From positions 132 through 64,131 of the forward strand of contig JAJDBK010000076.1 in assembly GCA_029261405.1 (NCBI GenBank): a DNA stretch of 64,000 nucleotides, given 5' to 3'. Of the stretch, positions 10,394 through 38,764 are shown piece after piece (position 1 is the stretch's first letter; the number at the start of each line of letters is the position of its first letter). The stretch is from Nitrospinaceae bacterium (GTDB lineage: Bacteria > Nitrospinota_A > UBA7883 > JAJDBK01). The notes below the pieces were generated by a model that was not told the origin of the DNA, did not search any database, and saw only the letters and a list, made by a program, of their open reading frames with translations. A program made the position numbers and the translations under genes.

Positions 10394-11335
10394 CTAGCTG
10401 TTTATAAAAGCCTCGGTTTTATCGATTTCGCTTACAACCTTGTCGAGAAGTTCTATCATCTCATCGATCTCCACTCCCAGGTCGTACCAGGCGCCTTCGC
10501 TCGATTTTGTGGGAAAAATGTCTCCCGGCTCAGAAAGGCCCTGATCTGAAACGATAAACTCGGAAAGATGCACAACCTGACATAGCCATTTTGTCTCTTG
10601 AGGACAACGATCCGGCTCATGGTGAAACTCTACCGCATCGTAAATCACCTCCGGTAGCCCCCATTTGGCAAGCAGTAGTGAACTGATCTCGCCATGGTCC
10701 ATTCCAAGTAGTTCTTTTTCGACCTCGTGGACCTGTCTTTGCTCCTTTTCCGCGACTTCCCTAACCTTTGCGTAATACTCCGGGAAATATATATCAAGGA
10801 TATATATTCCCATATCGTGGAGCAGGCCGGCTGTAAAGATCATGTTCTTGTCTTTTACCGGTCTTCTGGAAGCGACCAGGCTTTGGGACATCAACGCCGT
10901 TGAGATACAGTGTTTCCAGAATTTCTTATGGTCCACAAGGCCGGAGGGGCTTTCGAATATTTTCATGGCGGCGAAGGTCATGCATATCTTCCTGGTTTCC
11001 GGGACTCCGAGTCTTACCAGCGCCTGCTGTACCGTGGTGAACCTTCCGTCCACAGGCGCGTAGAACGCGGTGTTTACCAGCCGAAGAAAATGAGCCGTCA
11101 GGGAAGGGTCGGTCTCGATGATCCTCGACACGGCTGTAAGGTCTATCGACTCCTTATTCATCTCGGCATTGAGCCTGTTGATAATGTCGGGAAATGGAGG
11201 CAGATTTTCAATTCCCTGGATTTTTTTCAAAATCTCGTATTTTATAGTTTCAGAATCTTTATCCAATGATTTTACTCCATGCTCTCTTTCAGGTCCGCGT
11301 AAAATAAGAAGCGGAACTTCCTCTGACTCTTGCAA
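10394..11335 (-). CDS. HDOD-domain signalling protein
   Basis: HDOD hallmarks: LPPFPDIINRLNAEMNKESIDLTAVSRIIETDPSLTAHFLRLVNTAFY... and GLLHDMGIYILD. The ORF start shown is a TTG overlapping cheR by 47 nt, so the true start is uncertain. Confidence 0.65.
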   Translation of the reverse strand: MQESEEVPLLILRGPEREHGVKSLDKDSETIKYEILKKIQGIENLPPFPDIINRLNAEMNKESIDLTAVSRIIETDPSLTAHFLRLVNTAFYAPVDGRFTTVQQALVRLGVPETRKICMTFAAMKIFESPSGLVDHKKFWKHCISTALMSQSLVASRRPVKDKNMIFTAGLLHDMGIYILDIYFPEYYAKVREVAEKEQRQVHEVEKELLGMDHGEISSLLLAKWGLPEVIYDAVEFHHEPDRCPQETKWLCQVVHLSEFIVSDQGLSEPGDIFPTKSSEGAWYDLGVEIDEMIELLDKVVSEIDKTEAFINS

Positions 11336-12155
11336 AAAGGTCGGAGTTTCCAGTTACGCTTTCGGTGGACCCAAGAAAAAGGGAGCCATTTTTATTGAGA
11401 GTTTTTGCGAGTTTCGCGTAGAGCGCCACCTTGAAATCGTCCTTGAAATAGATCGCCACATTTCGCATGAACACAATATCGAAATTCCCCATACCGAGAA
11501 AGTCGTCCTTAAGGTTAAGGCTCTTGAATTTCACCTTCTCCTTTACCTCAGGCTTTATAGTGTGACACCTTCCTTCCTCTTTAAAATAACGATTAACCAT
11601 GTCCTGATTCATTCCCCTTTTCATCGCTATCTGGTCGTACCGGCCTGAAATAGCGATAAACATGGCGGACCTGCTTATATCGGTAGCGGTTATCTCTATC
11701 TTGTTCACCATGTCAGGCGCAATTTTTCTTGCCACCTCCAGGTAAGTCATGACAATAGAGTATGGCTCCTGCCCCGTAGAGCAGGCGGCGGACCAGATTT
11801 TGACCGAGCGCCGTTTCTTTTCCTTCAGTTCCCGAACCATGGACGGAAAGATTACTTTCTGTAGCTCGTCAAACGGTTTTGTATCCCTGAACCACAAGGT
11901 TTCGTTTGTTGTCATAGCGTCCACTAACTTGTCCCGTAACCCCATAGCGGGCCTGGTTACAGCCAGATCGTATAAGGAACGGTACGACCCTGCGCCTGTC
12001 TCTTTGAGAAGCCCGGAAAGGCGGGTTTCCACCAGGTAGGTCTTCTCGTCTCCCACGGAAATCCCACAGTTTTTTTCGATGTAATCCCTTAAGAGCCGAA
12101 ACTCATCTTTACTGATGGATGGGGGTTTATTTGATGAAGTCGTGGCGGTTTTCAT
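11289..12155 (-). CDS. cheR: chemotaxis protein methyltransferase
   Basis: EFRLLRDYIEKNCGISVGDEKTYLVETRLSGLL N-domain. The SAM-MTase core shows IWSAACSTGQEPYSIVMTY. Confidence 0.85.
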   Translation of the reverse strand: MKTATTSSNKPPSISKDEFRLLRDYIEKNCGISVGDEKTYLVETRLSGLLKETGAGSYRSLYDLAVTRPAMGLRDKLVDAMTTNETLWFRDTKPFDELQKVIFPSMVRELKEKKRRSVKIWSAACSTGQEPYSIVMTYLEVARKIAPDMVNKIEITATDISRSAMFIAISGRYDQIAMKRGMNQDMVNRYFKEEGRCHTIKPEVKEKVKFKSLNLKDDFLGMGNFDIVFMRNVAIYFKDDFKVALYAKLAKTLNKNGSLFLGSTESVTGNSDLFARVRGSSASYFTRT

Positions 12156-13255
12156 GAACGCAGAGACAGGTTCGATATATACACGGCCATATCGTCAATA
12201 TCGACCGAGATATCGTTCAAGCTTGCTTCATCTACGGCTCTTGGCATCCCGTATATCACACATGACGACTCCGACTGGGTGATGCAATAACAATTACAAT
12301 CCTTTTTTAGCGCCCTGACACCCTTGGCCCCATCAGAACCCATGCCGGTAAGAATGGCGGCCACTACTCCACTTTTACCATAAACCTCGGCTACCGACCG
12401 GAAGAGAGGATCTACAGCCGGCCTGCAGTTGTTCTCTGGTGGATCGTCGTTTATCACAACCGTGATAACTCCCATATGGCGGTTGATTACCATATGATGG
12501 CCACCCGGAGCGATGTAGACCTTACCCGGGTTGACAGCTTCTCCATGCCGCGCCTCCACTACCGTAAGGTTCGATTTCCGGTCGAGCGTCTTGGCGAGCG
12601 ATGCGGTAAACAGAGGGGGCATATGTTGAACTACCAGGACCGGCAGAGGGAAATCGGCGGGTAACTTCGGAATCAACCTGTCCAGGGCTACAGGACCGCC
12701 TGTGGAGACACCAATAACCAGCGCTTCAAATCGTTGAGGTTTCCTGACATGCGATCTTTTACGGGGAGGAACAGCGGTGCGAGAGGTCAGGCCATTAGCC
12801 GCCACCTTTGCCGCTATTGCCGGTATTACGGTTCCCCCTGTTGAGCGGAGGATTCTGGCCTTCACAACACCCGCAAGCTCCTTGACCTCATGGCGTAGCT
12901 GAGCGACGTTTTTCTCAAACGACTTGTCATCCGGCTTGCGGATAAACTCCAGAGCCCCGGAACCGAGCGCCTTGACGACAATATCGGCTTCCCGCGAGGC
13001 GAGAGCGCTCATCATGACCACCATTATTTCCGGGTGAAGTTCCTTGATCTTCTCCATGGTTTCAAAACCGTCCATCTCCGGCATATACACATCCAGCAGG
13101 ACCAGGTCAACTTTTGTGGTGTCAAGTTTTTCAAGCGCCGATTTTCCACTGAATGCGGAACCGACAACTTCAAAATCAGAGACCTCTTTCAAGGCGTCTG
13201 AAAACATCTTCCGGAAAAACACCATATCATCGACGACAAGCGCCTTGATACTCAT
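12152..13255 (-). CDS. cheB: chemotaxis response regulator protein-glutamate methylesterase
   Basis: N-terminal receiver (LVVDDMVFFRK...DLVLLDVYMPEMDG) plus C-terminal CheB methylesterase domain (ALVIGVSTGGPVAL...GMGSDGAKG). There is a 4-nt overlap with cheR. Confidence 0.85.
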   Translation of the reverse strand: MSIKALVVDDMVFFRKMFSDALKEVSDFEVVGSAFSGKSALEKLDTTKVDLVLLDVYMPEMDGFETMEKIKELHPEIMVVMMSALASREADIVVKALGSGALEFIRKPDDKSFEKNVAQLRHEVKELAGVVKARILRSTGGTVIPAIAAKVAANGLTSRTAVPPRKRSHVRKPQRFEALVIGVSTGGPVALDRLIPKLPADFPLPVLVVQHMPPLFTASLAKTLDRKSNLTVVEARHGEAVNPGKVYIAPGGHHMVINRHMGVITVVINDDPPENNCRPAVDPLFRSVAEVYGKSGVVAAILTGMGSDGAKGVRALKKDCNCYCITQSESSCVIYGMPRAVDEASLNDISVDIDDMAVYISNLSLRS

Positions 13256-13321
13256 AAATACTCCAAAACTGCAACAAACGTATTTATTACAAGTATGTGA
13301 AAAAAACTCTGTTCAGGATTA

Positions 13322-15751
13322 TTAAACCCTGAAACGTTTCACCGCGCTATCGAGCTGTTCGACAAGCCTGGATAGTTCCAGCGCTTCGGCGTTGTTCTCT
13401 GTTGCGTAGTCCGTATTGCTCCTGGCTACGGCGCTCATATCTTCGATGTTATGCAAAACACCACCTGTCGCGGTCGATACTTCCTTAATGTTCATCTCAA
13501 CCTCACCTGCCGAAGAGGAGGCGGCGGAAAAGTTTCCGGCGATCTCATTCATGGTAGCCGACTGCTCCTCCACCGCGCTTGCTATGCTGTGGGAAATATC
13601 GTTCATCTCCGTTATCACCGAGGCAATTCGCTTGATCGCCTCGACCGTCGAAAAGATGTTGGTGTGCATGGTCCCTATCTGCCCTGCAATCTCGTCTGTG
13701 GCGGTGTTGGTCTGTTTTGCAAGATCCTTCACCTCATCAGCCACTACCGCGAATCCTTTCCCGGCGTCCCCCGCAGAGGCGGCTTCAATAGTTGCGTTTA
13801 ACGCCAGAAGTTTCGTCTGATCGGCGATATCCTTGATGGTGTCAAGAACCTTGTATATCTCCCTGGACGAGTCACTAAGCAGTTTGATGGTTTCCCCTGC
13901 GGCGCTGGCCTGGGAGTCGGCGTCGTTTGCAATGTTCGACGCCCTGGAGCAGTTGTGGGCTACTTCGTTGAATGATGAACTCAGTTCCTCCACTGCGGCG
14001 GCGGACGAGCTTATGTTGCTCGACATTATCTCTGAAGAGTCGGCGATACTGCTGATATTAGACGAGGATTGCTCCACAGCCGCCGACACACTGTTCGACT
14101 TCATCGTCATCTCGTCTGACGCGCTAACCAGTCTTCGGGAGGATTTGGAGAGCGAATCGGCGGAATCAGACATGCCTGAGGAGGTAGTCACAACCGTTTC
14201 CACTATCTCCTGGATGTTCGCTACGAAGACGTTGAGCCAATGCGACATCTCTCCGATCTCATCATTCGACTTCACCTCAACGCGGGCCGTCAGATCCCCG
14301 TCCCCCTCGGCCATTTCACGAACGGCCATGGCCATCTTTCTTATAGGAATAGAAACGCTCCGCGAGATGACCACTCCGCCACTAATACCGAGAAGAAGGG
14401 CAACCAGAAAAATCACGCCAACTTTAAAAATATCGGAATGGATCTTCTCTTTTGTTTCTACCATCAGTTCTGTAAGACGTTTTTCCGTGTCCTTTTTCAA
14501 CGCCACAACATGGGGTCGCAACTCTTCAGCCGCTTTCGAAAGCTCCGTCATCGCGGTATTGATCTTTGCGTCGATGGTTACTATCTTTTTGAAAAGGGTG
14601 TGGTACTCATCAAGCAGAGTGTATAAAGGACCCGCTTCCCGCTCGGAAACAGCTTCACCGATCCCCCGTCTAAGGATCTCCACCTGGCTTGCCACACGAT
14701 CAATATATTTTTTGTCACCTCTGAGCAGGAAGTCCTTTTCATGTCGCCGCAACATCAGGAGATCACGTTCGAGTTTAATGTTCTCGAAACTTGAAAAATG
14801 GTCTTCCAGCGCATGTACACGTTTCCTGAACTGGCCTACTATTCCTTTCTCCACGAAACCTTTCTCAAAGACCAATTCGACAATATTTTCGAAACCGGAG
14901 CCATATTCGGCCAGATGCTCCACCACCTCCTTGCTCTCTTTTTCCACCAGCAGTTTGTCAAAACCCATGGACAACTGGATCGACACAATCTCATCAACCG
15001 TATATTTGATGTTCTGGATCATCTCTTTATGTTCGGTCAGTCGCCTCCGTTTTTTGTCCAGGAGAAAGCTCTCCTCAATTTTCCGCGCTTCGAGGGTATA
15101 AAGCTCAATATGCGATATCTCGCCCAGGGCGGTCCGGCTCTCCTTGATGATCCCGTCGTATTTCTCTACGGCGTTTAATACAGTGTTATATGCGTAACCG
15201 AGCGCCAGCGCCAGAACAATGTACGATACGCTCAGTCCACCTATCATCCTCCGGGCAAGAGTTCCGCCGCGAACAAACCGTGAACTTGAAGCGGACCGTT
15301 TTCTTGTCGCCTGTGTGCCAGGTTCACCATCCGAAGAAGCTTGCGAAGGTTTCATGCCCGCTCTAATCAAGTCCTGCGTATACCTTTTGTCGGCGCCGTG
15401 GATATGGTTCTTGAGCCAATCGATCAGGAACCCGAGCAGGTCAACACTAATAGCCTCACCGGCCTTGAACCGCTCCACATATCGCGTCACTTCCGCAAGC
15501 AGTTCCTCGTGTTTTTGTTTGTGGTCCTCAAACCCGGGATATCCGCATTTCATCATCTCCCGTTCTTCATTGGCGAAATGAGTGACGGTAAACTCCGTGA
15601 GACCGTTTAAGATATTCTCCAGCGCCTGGTTGCTCGATCCTTTTTTCATGGCGGCGTGAAGATCGTTGATGAACTTGAAGATCCGTTTGTGTTGGTCGTC
15701 GTAATCGGCGATACCTACGCTATAGTCATCACTCCAGTCTATGAAAGCCAT
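13322..15751 (-). CDS. methyl-accepting chemotaxis protein with N-terminal cytoplasmic hemerythrin domain, two TM helices flanking a CHASE3-like periplasmic region, and HAMP
   Basis: The first ~130 aa show hemerythrin ligand spacing ([44 protein letters not shown]). TM1 is near aa 165-190. The periplasmic region contains [14 protein letters not shown] (CHASE3-like). TM2 is near aa 440-465. The C-terminus is an MCP signalling domain ([10 protein letters not shown]..., [11 protein letters not shown]). Confidence 0.8.
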
Positions 15752-15887
15752 ATTCCCCTCTTCAATTGTTCCCGGTCTGTGAACATGCTACAGGCCAGAC
15801 CGTTATTAATATGTTCGTTTATTGTGGAGAATGCATTACGACACCAGGAGACAGTATCCATTTCAGAAGCGCCGATAAACATCAGGA

Positions 15888-16361
15888 TTAATTGACAGAT
15901 ACCGATTCAGGTACGTTTAAAACCACCATTAACCTTTTGTCTAGCTTAACCACCGACTTAAGGAAGCGGCTATCCATACCTCTCATGTTCGCAGGAGGTG
16001 GTTCAGTATCCGAATCTTCCACAGGATGAACTTCATCGACGTTGTCTATAAGTATGCCAACCAGATCGTCCGGCATTTTGGTTTGAGTCTCAGAGGGGAC
16101 GGAGCCTTTCAGTTCCCCGGCTGTTTTCAAAACCACACAATGCCTGTCAACGCTTTTCCCGTCCCCTTTCTTTATTCCGAATCGGGCGGAAAGATCAACG
16201 ATGGTGACTATCCTTCCCCTCAGGTTCATCAGTCCGCAGACATATTCGGGAGCGTGATCGACAGAGGTATACTCGAAGTTGTGAATGATCTCCCTTACGA
16301 GCATTATATCGATTCCGAAAAGCTCCCCGCCCATATAAAACGAGAAATATTTATGTTCCAC
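15888..16361 (-). CDS. cheW: chemotaxis coupling protein CheW
   Basis: 157 aa single CheW domain with YFSFYMGGELFGIDIMLVREII...VCGLMNLRGRIVTIVDL. Confidence 0.85.
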   Translation of the reverse strand: MEHKYFSFYMGGELFGIDIMLVREIIHNFEYTSVDHAPEYVCGLMNLRGRIVTIVDLSARFGIKKGDGKSVDRHCVVLKTAGELKGSVPSETQTKMPDDLVGILIDNVDEVHPVEDSDTEPPPANMRGMDSRFLKSVVKLDKRLMVVLNVPESVSVN

Positions 16362-16391
16362 TACTACTTTTCCCCCCTCCGGTAAAACGTT

Positions 16392-19388
16392 CTAGAGAAT
16401 TTCCTTAAGAGTGTGGATAAGCTTATCCTTGTCCAGCTTATGTTCATAAGCGGTCACTCCAGACTCAAGTCCCCTGGTGCGGTCCCGTTCAAGGGTCATG
16501 GAAGTCAGCGCCACTATGGGCAACGATTTATAGTCCCTGCTGGCCCGAACTTTCCTGGTCAGTTCAAAGCCGTTCATCCTCGGCATGTTTACGTCGGTAA
16601 TCAGGATATCGTAAGTTTCGTTTCCGCTCATGAGTTCTTCCCACGCATACTGACCGTCGATTACCGCTTTGACAGTCAAGCCGATATCCTCCAGGTATTT
16701 GGTCGTAATCGCCCTGAAAAACGCCGTATCCTCAGCCAGGAGAACCTTCTTTCCGTCAAGACCCCGCTCCGCCTTGGCATTGTCTTTATAAAGTTCGGGC
16801 GCCGCTTTCTCGTAGATTTTGTATATATCTATAAAAACGGCCATGGTGTTGTCTATCATGGAGGTTCCGAAAATACCGTCACCGCTTAAGCTATCCTTGT
16901 CCACCTCGGCGTCGGCGCTTACAACATCTTTCACTTCGGCAACGATAATACCGATAGTATGGCGAACAAGCCGTGGCACCAGCACCAGAAACTCTTCCGG
17001 AAACTCTTCCGGCGGGTTTACCGGCAGATAGTCGTGGAGTCTTATGACCCGCATAGAATGATCCTTGTACCGGACAAACTCCTTGTCGCCGATTATTTCG
17101 ATACGATCGGAAGTTATCTTGTCTATCCTGGCGATAAGATCGACGTTAATAACAAATGTCTCTTTGGTATTGTTGGTAAAGAGAAGAAGTTTCTGCATGT
17201 CAGCCAGTTTCTTCTTGATCGCCGCCCCCTTGGCGTCGAGTTCTTTCTCTTCGCCAAACTGGTCGAATCTCAAGTCCGCCCTTTGAGACAGGCCGTTAGG
17301 GTCAAGAATCATCGTGATCTTTCCATCCCCCATTATCGTCGCGCCGGAATAGATGTTTATCCCCTTTATGTAACGGGACAACGGTTTTACGACGATCTCC
17401 TCAATATCCTGAATACTATCCACCACCAGACCGAACCTGTGGGAATCGACTCGCAAAACCACAACCTGCATCGCCGAAGCCAGAGATTTCCGGCGATCAT
17501 CGATATGATCCCGATGATCCTCCTTTGAAGTATCCTCTTTGGCGATCTCCTCTTCTTTTTCGTCCGCTTCCATGTCGCGCCTGTCAATGAGGCGTGTTCT
17601 ATGCTCTTCAACCAACGAATTGGTGACCGGGTCCCGATAAAAGGTCTCTTCCGTTCCAAGAATGTCTGCGAGCCTGACGAGTGGTAACAACCTTCCCCGT
17701 CTGCGAATAACCGCTGAATCCCCCAGTTTTTCCACAAGGGTTGGTATATCCTTGCCGCGTATCCGGGTGAACTCCTCCACCGCAGTCTGCGGAATGGCAA
17801 ACCGTCTGCTTCCAACGGTCACGATAAGTGACGGGATAATTGCCATGGTCAGAGGAAGTTTTAAGGTCAGTCGTGTGCCAGAGCCGAGATTCGATTCCAG
17901 TTCTACAGCTCCGCCCAGCGATTCTATGTTGGTCCGTACCACATCCATGCCAACACCCCGACCGGAAACATCCGATACCGCCACGGCAGTGGAGAATCCG
18001 GGGGCGAAGATGAGGCGCTGGGCTTCGGAATCGGGCATTGAGGAAGCCGCTTCGCTTGTAATAATCCCTTTTTCCACCGCTTTGGCTTTAACCCTGTCAG
18101 GATCGATTCCCCTGCCGTCATCTATAATCTCAATGAGAACCTGGCCACCGTCATGCCTGGCGTTTACCGATACGGAGCCCTCCGACACCTTGCCTGCGGC
18201 CATTCTCTCGTCGGGTGTTTCGATAGCGTGATCGCCGCAATTGCGGATTATGTGAACCAGTGGGTCGGAAAGAGCCTCTATTATCGATTTGTCAACCTCC
18301 ACGTCCTTTCCGGTGATCTCAAGGTTAATCTGTTTGCCGAGGTTGCGGGAGAGATCGCGGATCAGCCGTGGAAGCTTGGAAAATACTGTACCCACAGGCT
18401 GGAGACGGGTGTGCATTATGCTCCCCTGGATGTCGCTTGTAACCTGGTCGATCTGTTTGGAGGCGATACGAATGGGCGAGATATCGGCCAATGAAACGGT
18501 GAACGACTTTAATATCTCTTCCTTGAACCTCGAAAGTTCCTGATCCAGACCCGCCTGAAGCCCTCCATTACCGTTTCCCGCAGAGCCTGCTCCCGGGTAT
18601 TCCTTTTCTACTCGGGCGATTATCGATGACAGACACTGGGTGGTTTTAGCCTCCATCTCGCCTGCGATCCCCTCTTCGCCCATCACTTCTGAGACTTTCT
18701 GGTTCAAAACGCTCATCATCTGGTTTCTGGCCAGAACCAACTCCCCGGCGAGGTTCATCAAACGATCAAGCAGTTCTATTCTGATTCTTAACGCTTCATT
18801 ACCTCGCGCTCCTGTGGAAGATCCGTCCGCTCCCGGTTGCTGACCCGATTTTCCCTTCTTCTCGACAGTCGCATTCCCAAGCTCCACCACAGGCTCAGAG
18901 GCGACCTTCGGCACATCCGGGGTTTTTTTCTTTTTCGGTTTCGGTTCGGTTTTTTCGCTGACGCTCTTCTTTTCTTCCACAGGCTCTTCCGGCGCGGGAG
19001 GGTCATCGGATATGAACGGCGACAGCAGGGCAAGCTCGTCATCAATAGGGAGACTTTCCGATGTTTCGGCGTTGTCGATCATGGTGGAGAGCTTGTCGAT
19101 TCCCTTGAACAGGGCGTCTACCAGTTTGGGATCAACCGTAAGTTCGCCATCACGGACTTTCCCCAAAGCCGTCTCCATGCCGTGAGCCAGATTGGCGATA
19201 TTCATCATCCCCATGAACGAAAAACCGCCCTTGATGCTATGGACTGTACGGAAAAGACGGTTTATCACATCTTCGGATGACTCACTTCCATGAGTTTCCA
19301 GCAAAAGCAGGTCTGGCTCTATGGTGGCCAGATGCTCTTTTGATTCAGTAATCATCTCCTGAAGGAGTTCTTCGTCTTCCAAGCTCAT
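16392..19388 (-). CDS. cheA: chemotaxis histidine kinase CheA hybrid: Hpt, dimerisation, HATPase, CheW domain, 2 additional CheW-like domains, C-terminal receiver
   Basis: Hpt (RLFRTVHSIKGGFSFMGM). HATPase G-boxes (IIDDGRGID, GRGVGMDVV). CheW-like segments (RRFAIPQTAVEEF; VVVLRVDSHRFGLVVDSIQDI; LLLFTNNTKETFVINVDLIARI). Receiver (KKVLLAEDTAFFR...ILITDVNMPRMNG). Confidence 0.85.
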   Translation of the reverse strand: MSLEDEELLQEMITESKEHLATIEPDLLLLETHGSESSEDVINRLFRTVHSIKGGFSFMGMMNIANLAHGMETALGKVRDGELTVDPKLVDALFKGIDKLSTMIDNAETSESLPIDDELALLSPFISDDPPAPEEPVEEKKSVSEKTEPKPKKKKTPDVPKVASEPVVELGNATVEKKGKSGQQPGADGSSTGARGNEALRIRIELLDRLMNLAGELVLARNQMMSVLNQKVSEVMGEEGIAGEMEAKTTQCLSSIIARVEKEYPGAGSAGNGNGGLQAGLDQELSRFKEEILKSFTVSLADISPIRIASKQIDQVTSDIQGSIMHTRLQPVGTVFSKLPRLIRDLSRNLGKQINLEITGKDVEVDKSIIEALSDPLVHIIRNCGDHAIETPDERMAAGKVSEGSVSVNARHDGGQVLIEIIDDGRGIDPDRVKAKAVEKGIITSEAASSMPDSEAQRLIFAPGFSTAVAVSDVSGRGVGMDVVRTNIESLGGAVELESNLGSGTRLTLKLPLTMAIIPSLIVTVGSRRFAIPQTAVEEFTRIRGKDIPTLVEKLGDSAVIRRRGRLLPLVRLADILGTEETFYRDPVTNSLVEEHRTRLIDRRDMEADEKEEEIAKEDTSKEDHRDHIDDRRKSLASAMQVVVLRVDSHRFGLVVDSIQDIEEIVVKPLSRYIKGINIYSGATIMGDGKITMILDPNGLSQRADLRFDQFGEEKELDAKGAAIKKKLADMQKLLLFTNNTKETFVINVDLIARIDKITSDRIEIIGDKEFVRYKDHSMRVIRLHDYLPVNPPEEFPEEFLVLVPRLVRHTIGIIVAEVKDVVSADAEVDKDSLSGDGIFGTSMIDNTMAVFIDIYKIYEKAAPELYKDNAKAERGLDGKKVLLAEDTAFFRAITTKYLEDIGLTVKAVIDGQYAWEELMSGNETYDILITDVNMPRMNGFELTRKVRASRDYKSLPIVALTSMTLERDRTRGLESGVTAYEHKLDKDKLIHTLKEIL

Positions 19389-21048: not shown

Positions 21049-21755
21049 TTGTCGAAAAAATCCAAAACACCGGCTGACAACCGGTTCACTTTTTACGAAT
21101 TTTTCGCCGGGAGCGGCATGGCGCGGGCGGGACTCGGTTCAAAATGGAGATGTCTTTTCGCCAGCGATATCGACCCTACAAAAGTTTCGGCATACCAGGA
21201 GAGCTGGAGTAACGCTCGTACCGTACAGAATGATGTCGCAAACCTCGCAACAGACTTACCTTCACCGAAGTGGCGCCCAAAAGCGTATCAGCGAAATGGA
21301 TCTGGTGGGACCTTCCCATACCGGGTCAGCGGAAGATAAGTCTGACGGATATTCCCGAACATCACCCGACCGATGTTAATTTTCATCCGCCTGAAAAGAC
21401 AAAAACCCTGCTCGAAATGATGAGCGGGATCAACACCGCCAAGGTCACCAGGGCGCAAGGATCGGGGGTTATGAAAGCCGGGTGTAGCTACAGAAGAATG
21501 CGGAACGGAATTCAGCGAGCGGAGGTAAGGTTCGACAACGTGTCCGGCTGTTTAAGAACGCCCTCCGGCGGCTCCAGCAGACAGACACTACCGCTTGCGC
21601 ATGGAAAAGAGGTACGATCCCGGCTTTTTTCGGCGCGTGAAGTCGCCCGCCTCATAGGTCTATCGGAAAAATATAAACTTCCCAAAAGTTATCACGCCGC
21701 ATACCACCTGGCAGGAGACGGGGTCGCTGTGCCGGCAGTGAAATTTCTGGCGTGA
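21049..21755 (+). pseudogene. Decayed DNA (cytosine-5)-methyltransferase remnant split over three reading frames
   Basis: Frame 1: FYEFFAGSGMARAGL...CLFASDIDP..A..YQ resembles C5-MTase motifs I-III. Frame 3 ends with REVARLIGLSEKYKLP...YHLAGDGVAVPAV, resembling motifs IX-X. No frame carries a PCQ catalytic motif. The total span of about 235 codons is too short for an intact enzyme. Confidence 0.45.
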
Positions 21756-32097: not shown

Positions 32098-33351
32098 TCA
32101 GGCGCTGTTGGTATGGGGATTATAAACCAGAGACTCCGCCCTGGCGACAAGCCGCCTGCGATCATGTTCATCGTGACCGATAACAAGGAATGTAAAATCG
32201 GAAGGCGCCCCTCCGAAAGGCAACACTCCGCTGGCGCGGTCAGGGTTAAACGCATCCTCCCCCAATCTTTCAATCCATTGCATCGGCGTTAAAGGAGTTC
32301 CAGCAGGAAGGCTCATGCAGAGAGCCGACCCGCTTCGGATCATGACAAGGGGGTCGCCGTTTGTAAACCTGTTGGTGAACCAGGCGGCGTAGGTCGAAGT
32401 ATTATGCCGGGCGTTCATCTCCACGGCGAAGACTTCTTCATCTTCGGTAATGATAAAATCTACGCCCAACACTCCTCGATACCCCATAGCCGCCACTTGG
32501 AAGGCAAGCTCCTTCCCCTGATCCAGGAGCTTTTCGCGAATTGTGGGGTCTTCCACCCTGTCGAAAAAATTTCCCCGGTGGTCCATTTTGTCATGCAAAA
32601 TCTGGACAGTCTCGCAGAAGAGGTAAACCTGATCGTCAGCGATATAGAATTGCAGGTTGGGGGAGAGGAGAACATCGCGCAGGGGTTGCATTACCAGCAG
32701 GGAGTCCCTCCCCATTTTATCCAGATGTTCCAGACAGGCCGTCCGCTCATCGTCGTTTCGTAAAGGCCACACGAGACTGCCGCCCACGCTGGCGCTAGAC
32801 CTGACTATCGAAGGTTTCGTTTCGATCTTCCTGATCCTGCCCGCAACGGCGTCGGAGTTGCCTATGAAACCCGGGATCCTGGGAAGATCAAGATCTTCCA
32901 TAAGGCGATAGAAGAAAATCTTGTCGTTTAAAAGCTCGGCGACCCGCCATCCGCACGACACCACGGAGCGACCCGTGGCCTCCCCGATTCTCTCTTCCCA
33001 CAAGCCCGGCATATATATCTCGAACCTGCCGTCCCACTCCTCGATTATCTTGATAAGCTTCGGACTGCCCGCTACCTCTTCGGCGAGAGAAAAACCCTCG
33101 GGACCATCGGTGAGAATCGGTATTCCACCCGCATGACACTCTTTTAGCAAGGCGAGGTATTCAGGTTCCGGAAGCTTGTCCAGAACAACGATATCATCTC
33201 TTCGGGCCATGAGAAGAGCGCGTGACGACAAGCGTTTGAACGATTTTTGTACCGTTTCATAATCTCCACTGAAGGGCCAGGAGGATTTCCGGAAACTTAT
33301 GGACGGGAGGTGAAAAACATTTTTATCCTTGCCGGGGCCAGCGTCATTCAT
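32098..33351 (-). CDS. ATP-grasp fold enzyme of unknown specificity
   Basis: C-terminal ATP-grasp signature VLGVDFIITEDEEVFAVEMNARHN. The ORF in the track starts at a TTG at 33390 overlapping the upstream gene. The ATG at 33349-33351 is preferred, but the start is uncertain. Confidence 0.55.
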   Translation of the reverse strand: MNDAGPGKDKNVFHLPSISFRKSSWPFSGDYETVQKSFKRLSSRALLMARRDDIVVLDKLPEPEYLALLKECHAGGIPILTDGPEGFSLAEEVAGSPKLIKIIEEWDGRFEIYMPGLWEERIGEATGRSVVSCGWRVAELLNDKIFFYRLMEDLDLPRIPGFIGNSDAVAGRIRKIETKPSIVRSSASVGGSLVWPLRNDDERTACLEHLDKMGRDSLLVMQPLRDVLLSPNLQFYIADDQVYLFCETVQILHDKMDHRGNFFDRVEDPTIREKLLDQGKELAFQVAAMGYRGVLGVDFIITEDEEVFAVEMNARHNTSTYAAWFTNRFTNGDPLVMIRSGSALCMSLPAGTPLTPMQWIERLGEDAFNPDRASGVLPFGGAPSDFTFLVIGHDEHDRRRLVARAESLVYNPHTNSA

Positions 33352-33370
33352 ACAGGTTTGATATCCCCGA

Positions 33371-34957
33371 TTAATCGACCGATATACCAAAAAAATCGAG
33401 GGTACGGCCTATAGAGTAGTGGTATTGAGCGACCGCTTTTCGCAGGTTGGCGATAGCGGAGAGTTCATTATTCTTCTGGACAGTCATATCTTTCTGGTAT
33501 TCGAGCACGCGAAACGAAGTAGAGGCGCCCGCTTCAAACTTGCTAAGCTCCGCCTCCAATCTTTTTTCCGCAAGATTTCGGGAAAATTCGGAAGCGGCAA
33601 GTTGTTTCCTGCCGTTTTCAATGCTCCTTATTGCGTCACGAACCTCCATGGCCACTTCCCGTTTGGCGTTTTCAAGGTTTATAACAGCCGTCTGAACGGC
33701 AAGACTCGCGCCAAGGGAGGTTGCTTTCGCCTCCCTGTTCCCCAGGGGAAAACTGAGAGTCACTCCGAAGGAGTATTGATAATAGTCGCCCGACCCGGCG
33801 TCGAGATAACTGTCAAACAGCCCACCTTCAAGATCAGACGAATCGGCGACGCCACCTGCGAGGCTGGTTGCATTCCGCACATCACCTCGCAAACCGTTTA
33901 GTGACATCACAGCGATGAAATCGAGTTCAGGTTTTTCCCCGTTCCGGTAATATACAAGTTCGGTTTCCCTGTTCTCAAGTTCCATTGAGGCCATTGCAAC
34001 TTCCGGCCTGTCGCGCAAAGCCCGGGATACGGCAAGATCGAGATCGACCTTTTCCGCGTTTATCACAGGTTCATCCACAGGGTTTAAAAGTCTCTTCCAT
34101 ATGTCGGAGCCGAGGCTTGGGTTAATCAGGCTCAGTAACCTGTCGGATGTCTCTTCAAGAGTATTGGCCGCCTCGATAACGAGCCTTTCCCGGTCCGCCA
34201 CCGAAGCCTGGGCTACAAGGATTTCTATCTGCGCAAGAGCGCCCACCTCCACCTGGATTCGGACCCTCCGTTCGAAATCACGCGCTATCGCAAGCGACTC
34301 TTTCTCGGCGGCGAGGGCGTCCTTCCGGTATACAAGTTCCCAGTATGTGCCGTTAACATCCGTTACCACATTGCTGATCGATTGCCGCAGACTCTCCTTC
34401 GAGGATATCTCCGAATTTGCGCTGGTGACGATTTGCCATCGGTTGACGTTCCTCCCCGCCCCTTTCCACAAAGGTTTGGTGAGAGACAATTTTACGACCG
34501 TGTTGTATGTCGGGTCGAGGCTACTGAAGGATGAATTTGTCGATTCCCTCAACGCTTGGGCCGACAGGGTGTACTCGCTTCCGGTATGGCTCTTTCTTGC
34601 GATAGCGACCTGGGCGTCCTGCGATTGCGACTCTCCGATAGCGGGGTCGGCGAAAGCGGACGAAGAAGGGGTGCGGGAGCCACCCAGAGTGGCGCTTGCC
34701 GAAAGGGACGGGTCGAAAGCCGATTCGGCCACGATTTTTTGCGCGCCAGCATTTAACAACTCCAGCCTCTTCAAGGCGACTTTAAAATTGTTCCGTACGC
34801 TTAAGGTCACCGCCTCTTCAAGGGTTATGGGGTACGGCTCGTCGTTCACCACGGCGGCCTGCGACACGGCGCCCCAGCCGGAGACTAAAACCAGCGCAAA
34901 ACAGGCGATGAGCGGATATCGGAAATAATTTTCCGACGATCTGTCAGAAAAAGTCAT
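33371..34957 (-). CDS. TolC-like outer membrane efflux/secretion channel protein (OEP family), signal peptide
   Basis: N-terminal signal (LIACFALVLVSGWGAVSQA). TolC-family repeat character TLEEAVTLSVRNNFKVALKRLELLNAGAQ. Two OEP repeats. Confidence 0.75.
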   Translation of the reverse strand: MTFSDRSSENYFRYPLIACFALVLVSGWGAVSQAAVVNDEPYPITLEEAVTLSVRNNFKVALKRLELLNAGAQKIVAESAFDPSLSASATLGGSRTPSSSAFADPAIGESQSQDAQVAIARKSHTGSEYTLSAQALRESTNSSFSSLDPTYNTVVKLSLTKPLWKGAGRNVNRWQIVTSANSEISSKESLRQSISNVVTDVNGTYWELVYRKDALAAEKESLAIARDFERRVRIQVEVGALAQIEILVAQASVADRERLVIEAANTLEETSDRLLSLINPSLGSDIWKRLLNPVDEPVINAEKVDLDLAVSRALRDRPEVAMASMELENRETELVYYRNGEKPELDFIAVMSLNGLRGDVRNATSLAGGVADSSDLEGGLFDSYLDAGSGDYYQYSFGVTLSFPLGNREAKATSLGASLAVQTAVINLENAKREVAMEVRDAIRSIENGRKQLAASEFSRNLAEKRLEAELSKFEAGASTSFRVLEYQKDMTVQKNNELSAIANLRKAVAQYHYSIGRTLDFFGISVD

Positions 34958-37173
34958 CGCTGGTCTGAATGATCTGACAGACGGGATAACCTGATATCCG
35001 TTTCGTTCAAACGGTTGATAAGCGACCTGATTATTTTCATCCCGATCTCAGGATAGTTTTCGATGGTCTGTTTGATCTTGTCACCCGGAAACACTTTTAC
35101 TATGCTACGCCCGGAAGAGCGGATCGTGGCGTTTCTCGGTTCGTTCTGCAACGCGGACATCTCTCCGAAATAATCGTTTGGCTGGCTGATTTCGCCGATG
35201 ATTTTTCCATCCTTGGTGATGACAAGAGAGCCTTGCATAAGCTGGTAGAAGTTTCTGTCGGTATTACCTTCGCGGATAATGAGGTCGCCATCGTCAAATG
35301 TAAGTTCGTCCGGGTTGAGCAGGTAGGCCGGGAGAGCCTCCCGAATAAGCACTGTTTTCCCCAGAACCTCTTCGAGCGTGGTTTCGCCGGCGCGCGCTTT
35401 ATCGAGGGCGTCCATCCTCAAGGTCTTCATCCCCTCCTTGATGGCTATTTTTCGTAGTTGGCTCTCCTGCAACTGAGCCGTGATAGCCTCCTTGATCGCC
35501 TCAGTGGCCTCCATCATCTCAAAAACACCGAGCCTCCCCTTGTATCCGCCACCACCACAGTGGGTACATCCCTTGCCCCGGTAGAGTTTGAAATCGGCCA
35601 GATCGTCCTTGTCGACACCCGCGTCGAGCAGCTCCTGAGGGTTGACATCCTTCACCTCTTCCTTGCACTTGGGGCAGATACGCCTGAAAAGGCGCTGGGA
35701 GGCTATGGCGCAGATTGAAGAGGCGATCATGTATCCCGGAATGCCGATATCGAGCAGTCGCCCGATGGTTGAAGGGCAGTCGTTGGTGTGCAGGGTGGAG
35801 AAGACCATATGGCCGGTCATCGCCGCCTTGATGGCGATCTCCGCTGTCTCTATGTCCCGGATCTCTCCGACCAGAATGACTTCAGGATCCTGCCGGAGGA
35901 ACGCCTTCAGCGCCGAGGCGTATGTCAGGCCAACTTCAGTCCGCACATTTACCTGGTTGATGCCGGTAAAGTTAAATTCGACAGGATCCTCGGCTGTGAG
36001 GATCTTCACCTCCGGTTTGTTCAGGATGTTTATCGCTGAGTAGAGGGTATTGGTTTTACCCGATCCGGTCGGACCAGTCACTAAAACCAGACCTTGCGGT
36101 TTGTTGATGTTTATCATGAACCGGTCGAGCATTTTCCTCGAAAACCCGAGTTTTGTCATGTCGATCTGGAGTTTGCTCTGATCCAACAGCCGCAAAACTA
36201 TCGATTCGCCGAAAAGGGTCGGCAATACGTTCACACGGAAGTCGATAGCCTTGCCCCTGCCGAGCCTGAGCTTTATTCTGCCATCCTGCGGCCTTCTTTT
36301 CTCGGCTATGTTGAGGCTCGCCATGATCTTCATGCGGGAGACTAAAGCGCCCTTGATGGTCAGCGGAAGGTTCATGGCCCGGATAAGTATTCCGTCGATC
36401 CTGTAGCGGACCTGAAAGCTCTTTTCGAACGGTTCGATATGGATATCGGATGCGCCCTGGTTGATCGCTTTGAGCAGAATTCCGTTTACCAGTTTGATAA
36501 TGGCGGCGTCGCCGGAGTTGTAGAGTTGCTCTCCTTCGTCATCATCCGTAGACTCAAGCTCCAGGTCTCCGGCCGCTTCGGAGATGATGCCACCGATATC
36601 GTCGAACTTGTCGATATTGATATTCTCTTCTACTTCATCCTTCTTGGAGACCTCCCGGTCCTTGACCAGCTCTTCATACTCCTCGTCACCAAGCTCGTAG
36701 AATGTCCTGAACTGTTCCAGAAGGGATTCTTCCAGAACGATCGCCGCCTTGACTGTCTGCCTTGAGGTCTTGTTCAACAACTCAAGATGTTTCATGTTCG
36801 TCGGGTCGAGCATTCCAATACGAATGGTCTTTCCGTCAGAACTGAGGGGAATGGACATACACTCCCGGGCGAGATCCCATGGGATCAGCTTGGCAAGTTC
36901 AGGGTCGAGTTTCTCGTCGTTAAAATCGACTACCGAAATGGAGAGCTGTCGGGAAATGAACCGGACCATGGAATCTTCATCCATGTATCCGAGTTTTATC
37001 AGGATCTTCCGGACTCCGACGTTGGTCTTCAGCTTTTTCTGGATCTCTTCGGCTTCTTTTAACTGGGACCGGGTAATCTGGCCGTCTTTGGCGAGGAGTT
37101 TCCCGAGAACCTCAGCGGCATCCTCTTTGATACTCTTCTTGAAAGATGTTTTTTTTTCAGCTATTTCAGCCAT
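34954..37173 (-). CDS. GspE/PilB-family secretion ATPase with MshEN-like N-domain and C-terminal cyclic-nucleotide-binding (CAP-family) domain
   Basis: Walker A VLVTGPTGSGKTNTLYS. T2SSE His/Asp boxes and a tetracysteine CPKC...CTHCGGGGYKGR. The N-terminus LGKLLAKDGQITRSQLKEAEEIQ fits the MshEN-type motif. The last ~125 aa, GDLIIREGN...FGEMSAL...RNATIRS, are a cNMP-binding signature. There is a 4-nt overlap with the TolC-like gene. Confidence 0.8.
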   Translation of the reverse strand: MAEIAEKKTSFKKSIKEDAAEVLGKLLAKDGQITRSQLKEAEEIQKKLKTNVGVRKILIKLGYMDEDSMVRFISRQLSISVVDFNDEKLDPELAKLIPWDLARECMSIPLSSDGKTIRIGMLDPTNMKHLELLNKTSRQTVKAAIVLEESLLEQFRTFYELGDEEYEELVKDREVSKKDEVEENINIDKFDDIGGIISEAAGDLELESTDDDEGEQLYNSGDAAIIKLVNGILLKAINQGASDIHIEPFEKSFQVRYRIDGILIRAMNLPLTIKGALVSRMKIMASLNIAEKRRPQDGRIKLRLGRGKAIDFRVNVLPTLFGESIVLRLLDQSKLQIDMTKLGFSRKMLDRFMININKPQGLVLVTGPTGSGKTNTLYSAINILNKPEVKILTAEDPVEFNFTGINQVNVRTEVGLTYASALKAFLRQDPEVILVGEIRDIETAEIAIKAAMTGHMVFSTLHTNDCPSTIGRLLDIGIPGYMIASSICAIASQRLFRRICPKCKEEVKDVNPQELLDAGVDKDDLADFKLYRGKGCTHCGGGGYKGRLGVFEMMEATEAIKEAITAQLQESQLRKIAIKEGMKTLRMDALDKARAGETTLEEVLGKTVLIREALPAYLLNPDELTFDDGDLIIREGNTDRNFYQLMQGSLVITKDGKIIGEISQPNDYFGEMSALQNEPRNATIRSSGRSIVKVFPGDKIKQTIENYPEIGMKIIRSLINRLNETDIRLSRLSDHSDQR

Positions 37174-37360
37174 ATTTTCCTGACATTCAACATGTAACGA
37201 TATTTACCGGACAAAGTCTTAATCCAGCGCATGCGACAGTAGGATTATACGATATTTGGCGCTTTTTTGCATTCAAGTGGCTCCATAAGATTGCGTAGGA
37301 GTGGTTTTTTCAATACCATAGAGCCACTCTGGATTAATACAGCGAGCTTACTCTACCGAT

Positions 37361-38764
37361 ATGCACACGATTCTTGTTGCGGACGACGAAAAAAGCATGA
37401 CCGAGTTTCTTGAGATCATGCTGACCCGTGAAGGATATGAAGTCATCACCACAGCAACGGCTGAAGGGGCGATTGAACAGTTGGAGAAGGGAGGTATCGA
37501 CCTGACCATTACCGATATAAACATGCCCACAGCCGGAGGCATGGCTGTGATGGAGAGAGCGCACACCCTCGACACGGAACTTCCCGTGATCATGATAACG
37601 GCCTACGCCTCCACAGAAAACGCCGTTTCGGCCATGAAACTTGGAGCGTACGACTATATAACAAAACCTTTCCAGGTAGATGAGATCAAACTGACCATCG
37701 CCAAGGCTCTGGAGCGACGTACGGACAAAGCTGAGATCAAACGGCTAAAAGAAGAGGTGACAGAGCGTTACAGTTTCGGAGGCATCCTGGGACGGTCGGA
37801 AAAGATGCTCGACCTTTTTCGCCTTATACAGAAGGTAGCCGACAGCCGTTCCTCCGTTCTGATCTCTGGTGAGTCGGGTGTTGGCAAGGAGATGGTGGCA
37901 AAGGCGATCCACTTTCTTTCACCCAACAAGAACGGTCCTTTCTATTCGATAAACTGCGGCGCCATGCCGGAGCAACTGCTCGAATCGGAACTGTTCGGAC
38001 ACCAGAAAGGCTCCTTTACCGGAGCGCACGCCGACAAAAGGGGTCTATTGGAACTCTCCGATGGTGGAGCTTTTTTTCTCGACGAGGTGGGAGAAGCGCC
38101 TCTTTCGATTCAGGTGAAACTATTACGATTTCTCCAGGAGCGTGAGTTCCGACGTGTCGGAGGGGTGAAGGATATAAAGGTGAGTCTGCGGGTTATAGCC
38201 GCCACGAATCGTAACCTGGAAGAGATGATCGCAAAAGGGGAGTTCAGGGAAGACCTCTACTACCGACTCAACATAATCAACCTTGAAATCCCCCCCCTCC
38301 GGGAGAGGCGTGTAGACATTCCGCTGTTGGCGGCGCGGTTTCTTGAACAGTTCGCTACAGCCAACAACCGTGTGATAACCTCCATATCGAGTGACGCCAT
38401 GAAACTGCTGGAAAATCATGGATGGCGGGGGAATGTAAGGGAGCTTGAAAACGTTATCGAACGCGCTGTGGTTCTGACATCGGGGCCTGTCATCGAGATT
38501 GACAGCCTGCCCGAGGAGATCAAGATCTCAAGTCCTGATCTTGAAAATGAGGAGATATCGATCCCGAACGGAGGAATCGACCTGGACGCAAAGGTCGAGG
38601 AACTCGAAAAAGACCTTCTTTTAAAAGCGCTCTCGAAAACAAAAGGAATCAAAAAAGAAGCGGCGAAAATTCTCAACCTCTCCTTCCGCTCTTTCCGATA
38701 CAAACTTTCCAAACACGGAATAGGCGGGCGAACCAAAGAGGGGGGGGAGCAGGGGGATGAATAG
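37361..38764 (+). CDS. sigma-54-dependent Fis-family response regulator (receiver, AAA+ sigma54 activation, HTH)
   Basis: Receiver (ILVADDEKSM...LTITDINMPTAGG). Walker A GESGVGKE and GSFTGA (GAFTGA variant). The C-terminal HTH is IKKEAAKILNLSFRSFRYKL. Confidence 0.85.
   Translation: MHTILVADDEKSMTEFLEIMLTREGYEVITTATAEGAIEQLEKGGIDLTITDINMPTAGGMAVMERAHTLDTELPVIMITAYASTENAVSAMKLGAYDYITKPFQVDEIKLTIAKALERRTDKAEIKRLKEEVTERYSFGGILGRSEKMLDLFRLIQKVADSRSSVLISGESGVGKEMVAKAIHFLSPNKNGPFYSINCGAMPEQLLESELFGHQKGSFTGAHADKRGLLELSDGGAFFLDEVGEAPLSIQVKLLRFLQEREFRRVGGVKDIKVSLRVIAATNRNLEEMIAKGEFREDLYYRLNIINLEIPPLRERRVDIPLLAARFLEQFATANNRVITSISSDAMKLLENHGWRGNVRELENVIERAVVLTSGPVIEIDSLPEEIKISSPDLENEEISIPNGGIDLDAKVEELEKDLLLKALSKTKGIKKEAAKILNLSFRSFRYKLSKHGIGGRTKEGGEQGDE

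Follow-up and report, generated by a model that had tools for sequence, protein, structure and literature searches.

We analysed 64,000 nt of contig JAJDBK010000076.1 from a Nitrospinaceae bacterium (GCA_029261405.1), referred to below as the window, and in particular an ATPase gene block at 32098-37173 in which three genes are read from the minus strand. We favour, with a probability of roughly 0.6, the reading that the first gene encodes a type IVa pilus extension motor regulated by a cyclic mononucleotide (cNMP), which in the lineage of the window is co-transcribed with envelope accessory genes. The operon is probably not the self-contained new secretion system that an earlier note on this DNA had proposed, and its interest comes from a widespread fusion of sensor and motor rather than from an orphan secretion system. 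The gene, pilB-cNMP, and the parts of its predicted product are as follows.

34954..37173, minus strand: pilB-cNMP, type IVa pilus assembly ATPase with a C-terminal cyclic-nucleotide-binding (CNB) domain, 739 aa, assigned by Pfam, NCBIfam and structure matches
36943..37110, minus strand: MshEN_N four-helix bundle, residues 22-77, aligning to Vibrio cholerae MshE (5HTL), with two degenerate c-di-GMP-type motifs
36688..36942, minus strand: MshEN_C / T2SSE_N alpha-beta subdomain, residues 78-162, assigned by PF05157 at 41.6 bits
35362..36516, minus strand: motor core (N2 and C-terminal ATPase domain), residues 220-604, assigned by PF00437, with Walker A at 36052-36075 and the tetracysteine site
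34960..35328, minus strand: CNB domain, residues 616-738, assigned by PF00027, structure model and conservation
35125-35169, minus strand: phosphate-binding cassette FGEMSALQNEPRNAT within the CNB domain, with its Gly-Glu pair and Arg in place

A PilB-type motor

The ATPase was compared with profile libraries and with solved structures. The Pfam models T2SSE, cNMP_binding and MshEN/PF05157, which the earlier note had wanted run on this protein, all scored above their cut-offs, T2SSE (PF00437) covering residues 220-604 with 438 bits. The NCBIfam equivalog model for PilB, TIGR02538, was passed at 691.9 bits (cut-off 675.65), whereas the GspE model TIGR02533 failed at 549.5 bits (cut-off 630.25). 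The nearest solved structures were those of Myxococcus xanthus PilB (3jc8, E-value 4.6e-160) and of Geobacter PilB, with E-values of 1e-155 to 1e-160, and EpsE/GspE structures of the type II secretion system (T2SS) and Thermus PilF scored clearly lower. Inspection of the sequence revealed a Walker A motif (GPTGSGKT), an Asp box (EDPVEF), a Walker B motif (VILVGEIRD), a His box (TGHMVFSTLHTND) and a tetracysteine site (CPKC...CTHC). The earlier reading of core features shared by T2SS and type IV pilus ATPases is borne out by the Walker A and tetracysteine motifs, which are conserved in the family. All of the motor motifs are invariant or nearly so among 50-119 homologs, and G367-T374 together with C500, C503, C536 and C539 show no variation in 50 homologs. 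Since the PilB model was passed, the GspE models failed, the closest structures are PilB and the motor motifs are invariant, we call the protein PilB; as judged from these comparisons, it is PilB and not a generic GspE. A T2SS locus, in the sense of GspE together with GspF, pseudopilins and a secretin, was not found in the window, where the GspE equivalog models remained below their cut-offs.

A conserved C-terminal CNB domain

Residues 625-707 match cNMP_binding (PF00027) with 54.3 bits, against a cut-off of 27.5. In the structure model, which has a predicted local distance difference test (pLDDT) score of about 86-91 in this region, the beta-roll is complete, with strands over residues 622-695, the cassette helix at 671-676 and the B and C helices at 697-738. 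The cassette, YFGEMSA...PR.AT, is nearly invariant across the family, as is the linker KEALPAYLLNPDE in front of the domain, and Y668, F669, G670, E671 and R680 are the same in all 50 homologs. The profile score, the complete modelled fold and the conserved cassette uphold the CAP-family cNMP domain that had been noticed at the C-terminus. Measured by conservation, selection acts on the CNB domain as strongly as on the motor, the mean frequency of the top residue being 0.77 in the domain (625-707) versus 0.78 in the motor core. The closest solved CNB domains are the CNB-D domain of Plasmodium PKG and those of PKA regulatory subunits. The sequence and the model together indicate that the domain very probably binds a cyclic mononucleotide. 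A preference for cAMP or cGMP is not readable from the sequence because an Asn follows the cassette Arg.

Degenerate MshEN motifs in the window copy

The N-terminus of the ATPase aligns to that of V. cholerae MshE (5HTL) with an E-value of 1.3e-14. The structure model contains four helices at residues 22-77, as in the MshEN fold, and PF05157 follows at residues 78-162 (cut-off 23.1). The MshEN-type helix pair described earlier is thus in the right place (residues 22-76) and homologous in fold, but its c-di-GMP motif departs at defined positions. Motif I reads VLG...EEIQ, with Gln at position 11, Glu at position 21 and Val, rather than Arg or Lys, at position 1. An Arg or Lys at this first position stacks on guanine in the MshEN c-di-GMP motif (PMC5013675). 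Motif II reads NVG, then a Val-Arg insertion, then KILIKLGYMDEDSMVRFISRQ, and the insertion disrupts either the five-residue spacer or the register. The insertion (residues 56-57; 37003-37008, minus strand) is found only in the window protein among 13 aligned members, and the closest relatives have R-I-G in its place. NF053729, the NCBIfam model for the MshE-related c-di-GMP motif, reached 30.3 bits on the window ATPase, short of its cut-off of 38.

The family consensus is K/R-h-G...Q in motif I and R-h-G...Q in motif II, and a relaxed form of the receptor motif fits most members other than the window copy. From their sequences, the MshEN motifs of most family members look competent for c-di-GMP, and binding by the window protein may be weakened or lost. 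The contact residues that were to be checked against MshE depart at these positions in the alignment to 5HTL. The idea that the ATPase is gated by two second messengers retains its cNMP half, where the cassette is intact, but is uncertain in the window copy because the c-di-GMP motifs there are degenerate.

Family breadth and genomic setting

To place the protein in its family, we took the best 120 matches in a collection of 5.8 billion proteins, and the best 80 loci in a collection holding one genome per species, in which open reading frames (ORFs) were called and clustered and the clusters identified with Pfam. All 120 homologs combine MshEN, T2SSE and cNMP_binding at 52-76% identity, and all 80 loci match nearly to the C-terminus of the query (residue 723 or beyond). 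The homologs come mostly from metagenome-assembled genomes (MAGs) of Nitrospinota/Nitrospinae, then from Desulfobacula, Desulfobacteraceae and other Desulfobacterota, and those sources that name them call them PilB. This distribution makes a Nitrospinota bacterium the most likely source of the window. The exact window ATPase was found only on metagenome-derived contigs; cultured carriers of the family include Desulfobacter latus AcRS2, Desulfurivibrio dismutans AMeS2, Desulfobulbus elongatus DSM 2908 and Hydrosulfovibrio ferrireducens CB1MN. When the C-terminal 150 residues were compared with a library of representatives at 50% identity, multi-CNB proteins dominated and the PilB-type matches collapsed to a few clusters, showing, at the level of sequence, a compact family.

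The searchable literature yielded no description of a CNB domain on a PilB or GspE ATPase, and neither the 2016 MshEN paper nor a 2024 review of PilB regulation mentions one on PilB. The earlier note had called the architecture unfamiliar; we found no published description either, but the architecture is not rare, given its presence in all of the 120 best homologs and in 80 species-level loci under the name PilB. The fusion of PilB with a cNMP domain is therefore widespread and apparently unstudied.

In most family members the gene stands alone in housekeeping surroundings. The setting in Desulfobacterales is between an ABC-F ATPase gene (27 loci) and queH/yggS/maf (24 loci), and that in Desulfobulbia is between fhs (18 loci) and folD with CODH/ACS genes (11 loci). 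The latter places pilB-cNMP inside a Wood-Ljungdahl gene cluster (loci L030, L038, L046, L057, L061, L062, L064, L071, L073 and others); the fhs/pilB-cNMP/folD arrangement lies at about 9.5-22 kb in the fully flanked loci, and the placement is conserved. L038 (JAIWHJ010000083.1) is binned as 'Promethearchaeota archaeon' and, with its Desulfobacterota-type fhs/pilB-cNMP/folD order, is probably a binning contaminant. A sister group within Nitrospinota also has pilB-cNMP alone, for example beside secG-tpiA-pgk-gap.

Two loci bring the gene close to pilus or secretion genes. At L016, pilB-cNMP is followed directly by pilM and a prepilin peptidase gene (pilD), and then by REC-GGDEF and PilZ genes. 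At L060, it lies next to a T2SS-like cluster with a GspE and a GspF of its own. The earlier note had named an ATPase embedded in a complete T2SS or type IV pilus cluster in relatives as evidence against its reading, and these two loci go part of the way. Two Desulfobacteraceae MAGs (L060 7528-9855, L035 195-2522) encode a 775-aa GAF-domain PilB paralog directly upstream of pilB-cNMP, and sensor-domain-fused PilB paralogs can therefore occur in tandem.

A clade-limited operon

The window differs from most of these settings in the genes that surround the ATPase, given here with their coordinates.

33371..34957, minus strand: TolC-family outer-membrane factor (OEP), 528 aa, with PF02321 in two stretches
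32098..33351, minus strand: ATP-grasp ligase, PGM1/LdmS/BesA-like, 417 aa counted from the ATG, assigned by ATP-grasp_3 and by an AlphaFold2 (AF2) model with Foldseek
37174..37360, minus strand: operon leader and promoter region, with TATAAT at 37249-37244 and an AGGA ribosome-binding site at 37181-37178, from direct reading of the sequence
37361..38764, plus strand: divergent NtrC-family sigma-54 enhancer-binding response regulator (EBP), with Pfam Response_reg, Sigma54_activat and HTH_8; context, possibly a co-regulator

The tight coupling of three minus-strand genes claimed in the earlier note was confirmed, the ORFs lying where it had placed them. The ATPase and OEP genes share 4 nt (ATGA) at the stop of the one and the start of the other, and 19 nt, rather than the 20 given before, separate the OEP stop from the ATP-grasp ATG. 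A TTG start further upstream would extend the ATP-grasp ORF to 32098-33390 (minus strand), but public gene calls and the homolog alignment favour the ATG at 33351. The divergent sigma-54 activator at 37361 was likewise recognised as such by its three Pfam domains, and the gene after it encodes a TPR and periplasmic-binding (Peripla_BP_6) protein.

An OEP and/or ATP-grasp neighbour occurs in only 5 of 79 species-level loci (L002, L003, L004, L008 and L009). Both genes lie downstream of pilB-cNMP in L003 and L004; in L002 and L009 an OEP gene follows before the contig ends; and L008 keeps the ATPase, an activator and the ligase and has no OEP. Both partners are also present in L082-L085, which include loci at 60-75% PilB identity. 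In a neighbour-joining tree, the linked loci group as a single clade. The upstream flank of pilB varies among them: L082 (GCA_051418015.1) has the divergent activator there, L083 a CsgG-like gene, L084 dxs and L085 an RND efflux system. The downstream flanks differ as well. The divergent EBP with its TPR/Peripla_BP_6 neighbour recurs in L003 and L082. Identity within the clade is 61-81% for PilB, 34-47% for OEP and 23-50% for ATP-grasp, and the 4-nt overlap of pilB with OEP is preserved in three loci. An additional sigma-54 activator gene stands inside the operon before the ligase gene in L004, L008, L082, L083 and L085 (between OEP and ligase in four of the five, L008 having no OEP); it is absent from the window, L003 and L084.

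The three-gene order thus recurs in L003, L004 and L082-L085 with different flanking genes, as a synteny check suggested in the earlier note had anticipated. Because the linkage has outlasted changes in the flanks and a divergence of the partners to this extent, the comparison points to a genuine operon that arose once and has been kept by selection in a single Nitrospinota lineage. It does not tie the ATPase generally to the TolC-like and ATP-grasp proteins: these partners are confined to one Nitrospinota subclade, and the ATPase family as a whole is not dedicated to them.

Searches for the remaining parts of a machine were negative. PilC/GspF, PilM-Q, a secretin and a prepilin peptidase were absent from the 38 window ORFs of at least 150 aa that were scanned and from the public gene calls, and the prepilin signal motif did not occur in the six frames of the 64-kb window. 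Beyond the window edges, a look for pilus genes brought up only a 10-kb contig that overlaps it. The description of the ATPase as an orphan therefore holds for these 64 kb, in which no other T2SS or type IV pilus part was found, and is a statement about that span rather than about the genome. No inner-membrane component, whether a PilC/GspF platform, an ABC, RND or MFS pump or a membrane-fusion protein, was found in the block conserved across the clade.

The TolC-like neighbour was confirmed by a PF02321 match of 119 bits in the two repeats typical of the family. It has a signal peptide and no lipobox Cys, and the model for the TolC type I secretion subfamily, TIGR01844, gave 75.3 bits against a cut-off of 225.15. 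By its sequence, OEP is a generic, fast-evolving TolC-family protein. The third gene product passed ATP-grasp_3, one of the models proposed for it earlier, with a marginal 25.4 bits (cut-off 23.2), and its orthologs give a weak PreAtp-grasp domain match. Its best NCBIfam matches were LdmS and BesA, both far from their thresholds (NF047900, 37.5 against 475; NF042917, 22.8 against 750). The AF2 model (pLDDT 91.4) retrieved 8ynd/8ynq, 3wvq/3wvr, 7r8q and 8yi6 as top Foldseek matches, at template-modelling (TM) scores of 0.70-0.74 and 14-17% identity. Going by this model, the protein is an amide-bond-forming amino-acid or peptide ligase of the PGM1/LdmS/BesA-like kind. D298, E311, N313 and R315 are invariant in the homolog alignment, which fits an active ATP-grasp site. 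We found 24 homologs; every one with a named organism is from Nitrospinota/Nitrospinae, and at least 9 of the 24 are apparently on contigs with PilB-cNMP matches.

Four clade members carry, convergent to the operon, a DUF502 gene and a gene of the metallo-beta-lactamase fold with a Pfam match to the Anti-Pycsar protein Apyc1 (L003 9208-10755; L082 16375-17955; L083 16756-18364; L084 15045-16643). The pair is absent from the window, and its genes are 65-75% identical between the clade loci. Speculatively, the Apyc1-like enzyme might act as a phosphodiesterase on cyclic nucleotides, an activity that would bear on a PilB that senses cNMP.

Promoter and regulators

A TATAAT-like element was found upstream of pilB in all nine clade loci examined, mostly about 60-100 nt before the start codon. 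These elements speak in favour of an operon read from a sigma-70-type promoter. A sigma-54 promoter for pilB, served by the divergent activator, was considered and rejected: no match with two or fewer mismatches lies in 37174-37360 or upstream of the gene in the nine clade loci. Window-wide, sigma-54 -24/-12 matches stand at chance level (24 found, 21 expected). One such match, TGGCGCGAGTCTTGCC at 33698-33713 on the minus strand, falls within the OEP gene towards its 3' end, some 350 nt ahead of the ATP-grasp ATG. The divergent activator could not be identified as PilR, as NCBIfam returned only generic NtrC/AtoC-type matches below their cut-offs. Rfam found no family in the window that would make a riboswitch or other RNA element of the 5' leader.

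Interpretation

We propose that PilB-cNMP would hexamerise and, by way of a PilC/PilM platform whose genes would lie elsewhere in the genome, as for most family members, drive the polymerisation of pilin. When cAMP or cGMP binds to the Gly-Glu...Arg cassette, the B and C helices would move, by analogy with other CNB proteins, and this movement would tune ATPase cycling or platform docking allosterically. The result would be a direct, post-translational cNMP input to pilus extension, and in the window copy cNMP may be the main input because the MshEN motifs there are degenerate. In one Nitrospinota subclade, pilB-cNMP would have been joined once with OEP, a PGM1/LdmS-like amide ligase and, ancestrally, a sigma-54 activator. 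These partners would most likely serve co-regulated envelope or surface accessory functions; that they and the ATPase belong to a single machine is less likely. A small peptide or amino-acid conjugate would be made or modified by the ligase, and OEP would work with a pump from another locus.

Several observations weigh against this proposal. ORF scans and the six-frame prepilin motif search found neither PilT nor a pilin in the 64-kb window, and with no other pil genes there, the location of the motor partners elsewhere in the genome is assumed. The pilus role draws on homology and on the L016 locus, while the gene is isolated in most genomes. Some genomes have extra PilB paralogs beside the gene, so that the cNMP form might serve a specialised role while another PilB is the housekeeping motor. 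The cassette reads Arg-Asn-Ala, without the usual Ser, Thr or Ala after the Arg. Finally, the persistence of OEP and the ligase beside pilB over deep divergence, with overlapping codons, suggests a tie closer than co-regulation.

It is unlikely, in our judgement, that PilB-cNMP is mainly a signalling ATPase that reads nucleotide messengers and relays them to envelope or biofilm outputs such as OEP, the ligase and the sigma-54 activator. M. xanthus PilB, a signalling intermediary for the production of exopolysaccharide, provides a precedent (PMC5544727), the family has two sensor modules, sigma-54 activators lie inside or beside the operon in the clade, and the gene stands apart from pil genes in most genomes. 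The window is also rich in glycosyltransferases and encodes a polyprenyl-phosphate sugar transferase. However, the M. xanthus protein signals in addition to assembling pili, all catalytic and zinc-site motifs of PilB-cNMP are invariant, as for a working motor, the L016 gene adjoins pilM and pilD, and no output is directly evidenced.

The adjacency could instead be functionally meaningless, OEP and the ligase having landed downstream once and been kept by descent and shared transcription. A single origin of the linkage would agree with this, as would the loss of OEP from L008, the missing in-operon EBP of the window, L003 and L084, and the generic, fast-evolving character of OEP. The block nevertheless survives where both flanks have been replaced and ATP-grasp is down to 23-30% identity, overlapping codons are retained in three loci, and the ATP-grasp family is found, within search sensitivity, nowhere outside the pilB-cNMP setting. 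We consider this explanation improbable too.

The module set out in the earlier note, in which a GspE-type ATPase gated by second messengers energises export of the ATP-grasp product through the TolC-like channel, independently of a pilus or T2SS, appears doubtful at best. In its favour are the retention of the gene block in one Nitrospinota clade although the flanks are scrambled and the partners have diverged deeply, the 4-nt overlap of start and stop codons, an ATP-grasp family that appears limited to genomes carrying the operon, and the lack of pilus genes within 64 kb. Against a compact, self-contained module, the conserved block holds neither the PilC/GspF platform nor the partner pump that a TolC protein would work with, with no ABC, RND or MFS transporter and no membrane-fusion protein. 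To our knowledge, there is no route by which a cytoplasmic hexameric ATPase would act on an outer-membrane duct. The ATPase family extends far beyond the operon, the partners being so rare among its species-level loci, L008 has the ATPase, EBP and ligase without OEP, and the motor core is about as near to Myxococcus PilB as usual orthologs are, with no sign of re-tooling.

In another variant, the cNMP-sensing PilB of this clade was recruited away from the pilus and, with the TolC-like duct, the ligase and the sigma-54 activator, makes up a new system for envelope export or surface modification that is gated by a cyclic nucleotide and needs no PilC, pilins or secretin; this seems to us very unlikely. 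The TolC-like protein was rejected as a substitute for the secretin, since a type IVa pilus is much wider than a TolC duct and L008 does without OEP.

Other features of the window

A complete Che-type cluster lies on the minus strand at 10394-19388 and encodes an HDOD-HD protein, CheR, CheB, a hemerythrin-HAMP-MCP receptor (13322-15751), CheW and a CheA-CheW-REC hybrid kinase (16392-19388); it could be a chemosensory system directed at pili or biofilm. On the plus strand, 59933-62728 encodes a 931-aa CheA-type kinase with an internal MshE-related c-di-GMP motif at residues 490-537 (NF053729, 45.5 bits against 38), a match that suggests a chemosensory kinase with c-di-GMP input. A 161-aa ORF at 21270-21755 (plus strand) matches only the C-terminal part of the C-5 cytosine DNA methylase profile (189-319 of 324) and is probably a gene fragment.

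Significance and relation to known systems

Control of type IV pili at the level of the motor is understood mainly through c-di-GMP (MshEN, FimX/PilZ) and protein cofactors, and where cAMP acts on these pili it does so transcriptionally, via Vfr or CRP. If our reading is right, the CNB-PilB fusion constitutes a direct cyclic-mononucleotide input to pilus extension, and most family members would permit the study of one motor that integrates c-di-GMP and cNMP. PilB-cNMP spans two environmentally important phyla. Nitrospinota are related to nitrite oxidisers, and Desulfobacterota are sulfate-reducing or disproportionating organisms that also include the cable bacteria. A literature search on pili in Nitrospina and Nitrospinota gave nothing usable; the cultured carriers make the family testable now. 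The clade operon with its TolC-like protein and peptide-ligase-type enzyme is a separate, smaller puzzle and may hint at an envelope function that shares its regulation with piliation.

PilB-cNMP shares with the PilB proteins of M. xanthus, Geobacter metallireducens and Geobacter sulfurreducens (3jc8, 5tsg, 6olj, 5zfr) the MshEN-type N-terminus, the N2 and ATPase core, Walker A and B, the Asp and His boxes and the zinc site. Unlike these, it has about 130 extra C-terminal residues that form the CNB domain, and in most genomes its gene is not beside pilT, pilC, pilS, pilR or pilA. The N-terminal domain is homologous to that of V. cholerae MshE (5HTL; PMC5013675), from which the c-di-GMP motifs of the window copy depart. 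With PKA regulatory subunits, PKG, CRP and the SthK channel, PilB-cNMP has in common the beta-roll, the F-G-E...R-x-A cassette and the B and C helices; it differs from other CNB effectors in having a secretion-superfamily hexameric ATPase as its output domain and Asn after the cassette Arg.

In Pseudomonas aeruginosa, cAMP controls type IV pili transcriptionally through Pil-Chp, CyaB and the separate CRP-family protein Vfr (PMC11656802). A cyclic mononucleotide is there linked to pilus production, as we propose for PilB-cNMP, in which the sensor is instead fused to the motor, implying direct allosteric control. The ATP-grasp protein shares its overall fold with PGM1 (3wvq/3wvr), LdmS/SAOUHSC_02373 of Staphylococcus aureus (7r8q) and BesA (8yi6); unlike them, it belongs to a small Nitrospinota family of its own, set apart by the low identity and profile scores given above. 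OEP resembles TolC and other outer-membrane efflux proteins in its two repeats and its signal peptide without a lipobox, and is unlike the usual TolC in having no adjacent membrane-fusion protein or inner-membrane transporter and in being translationally coupled to a PilB gene.

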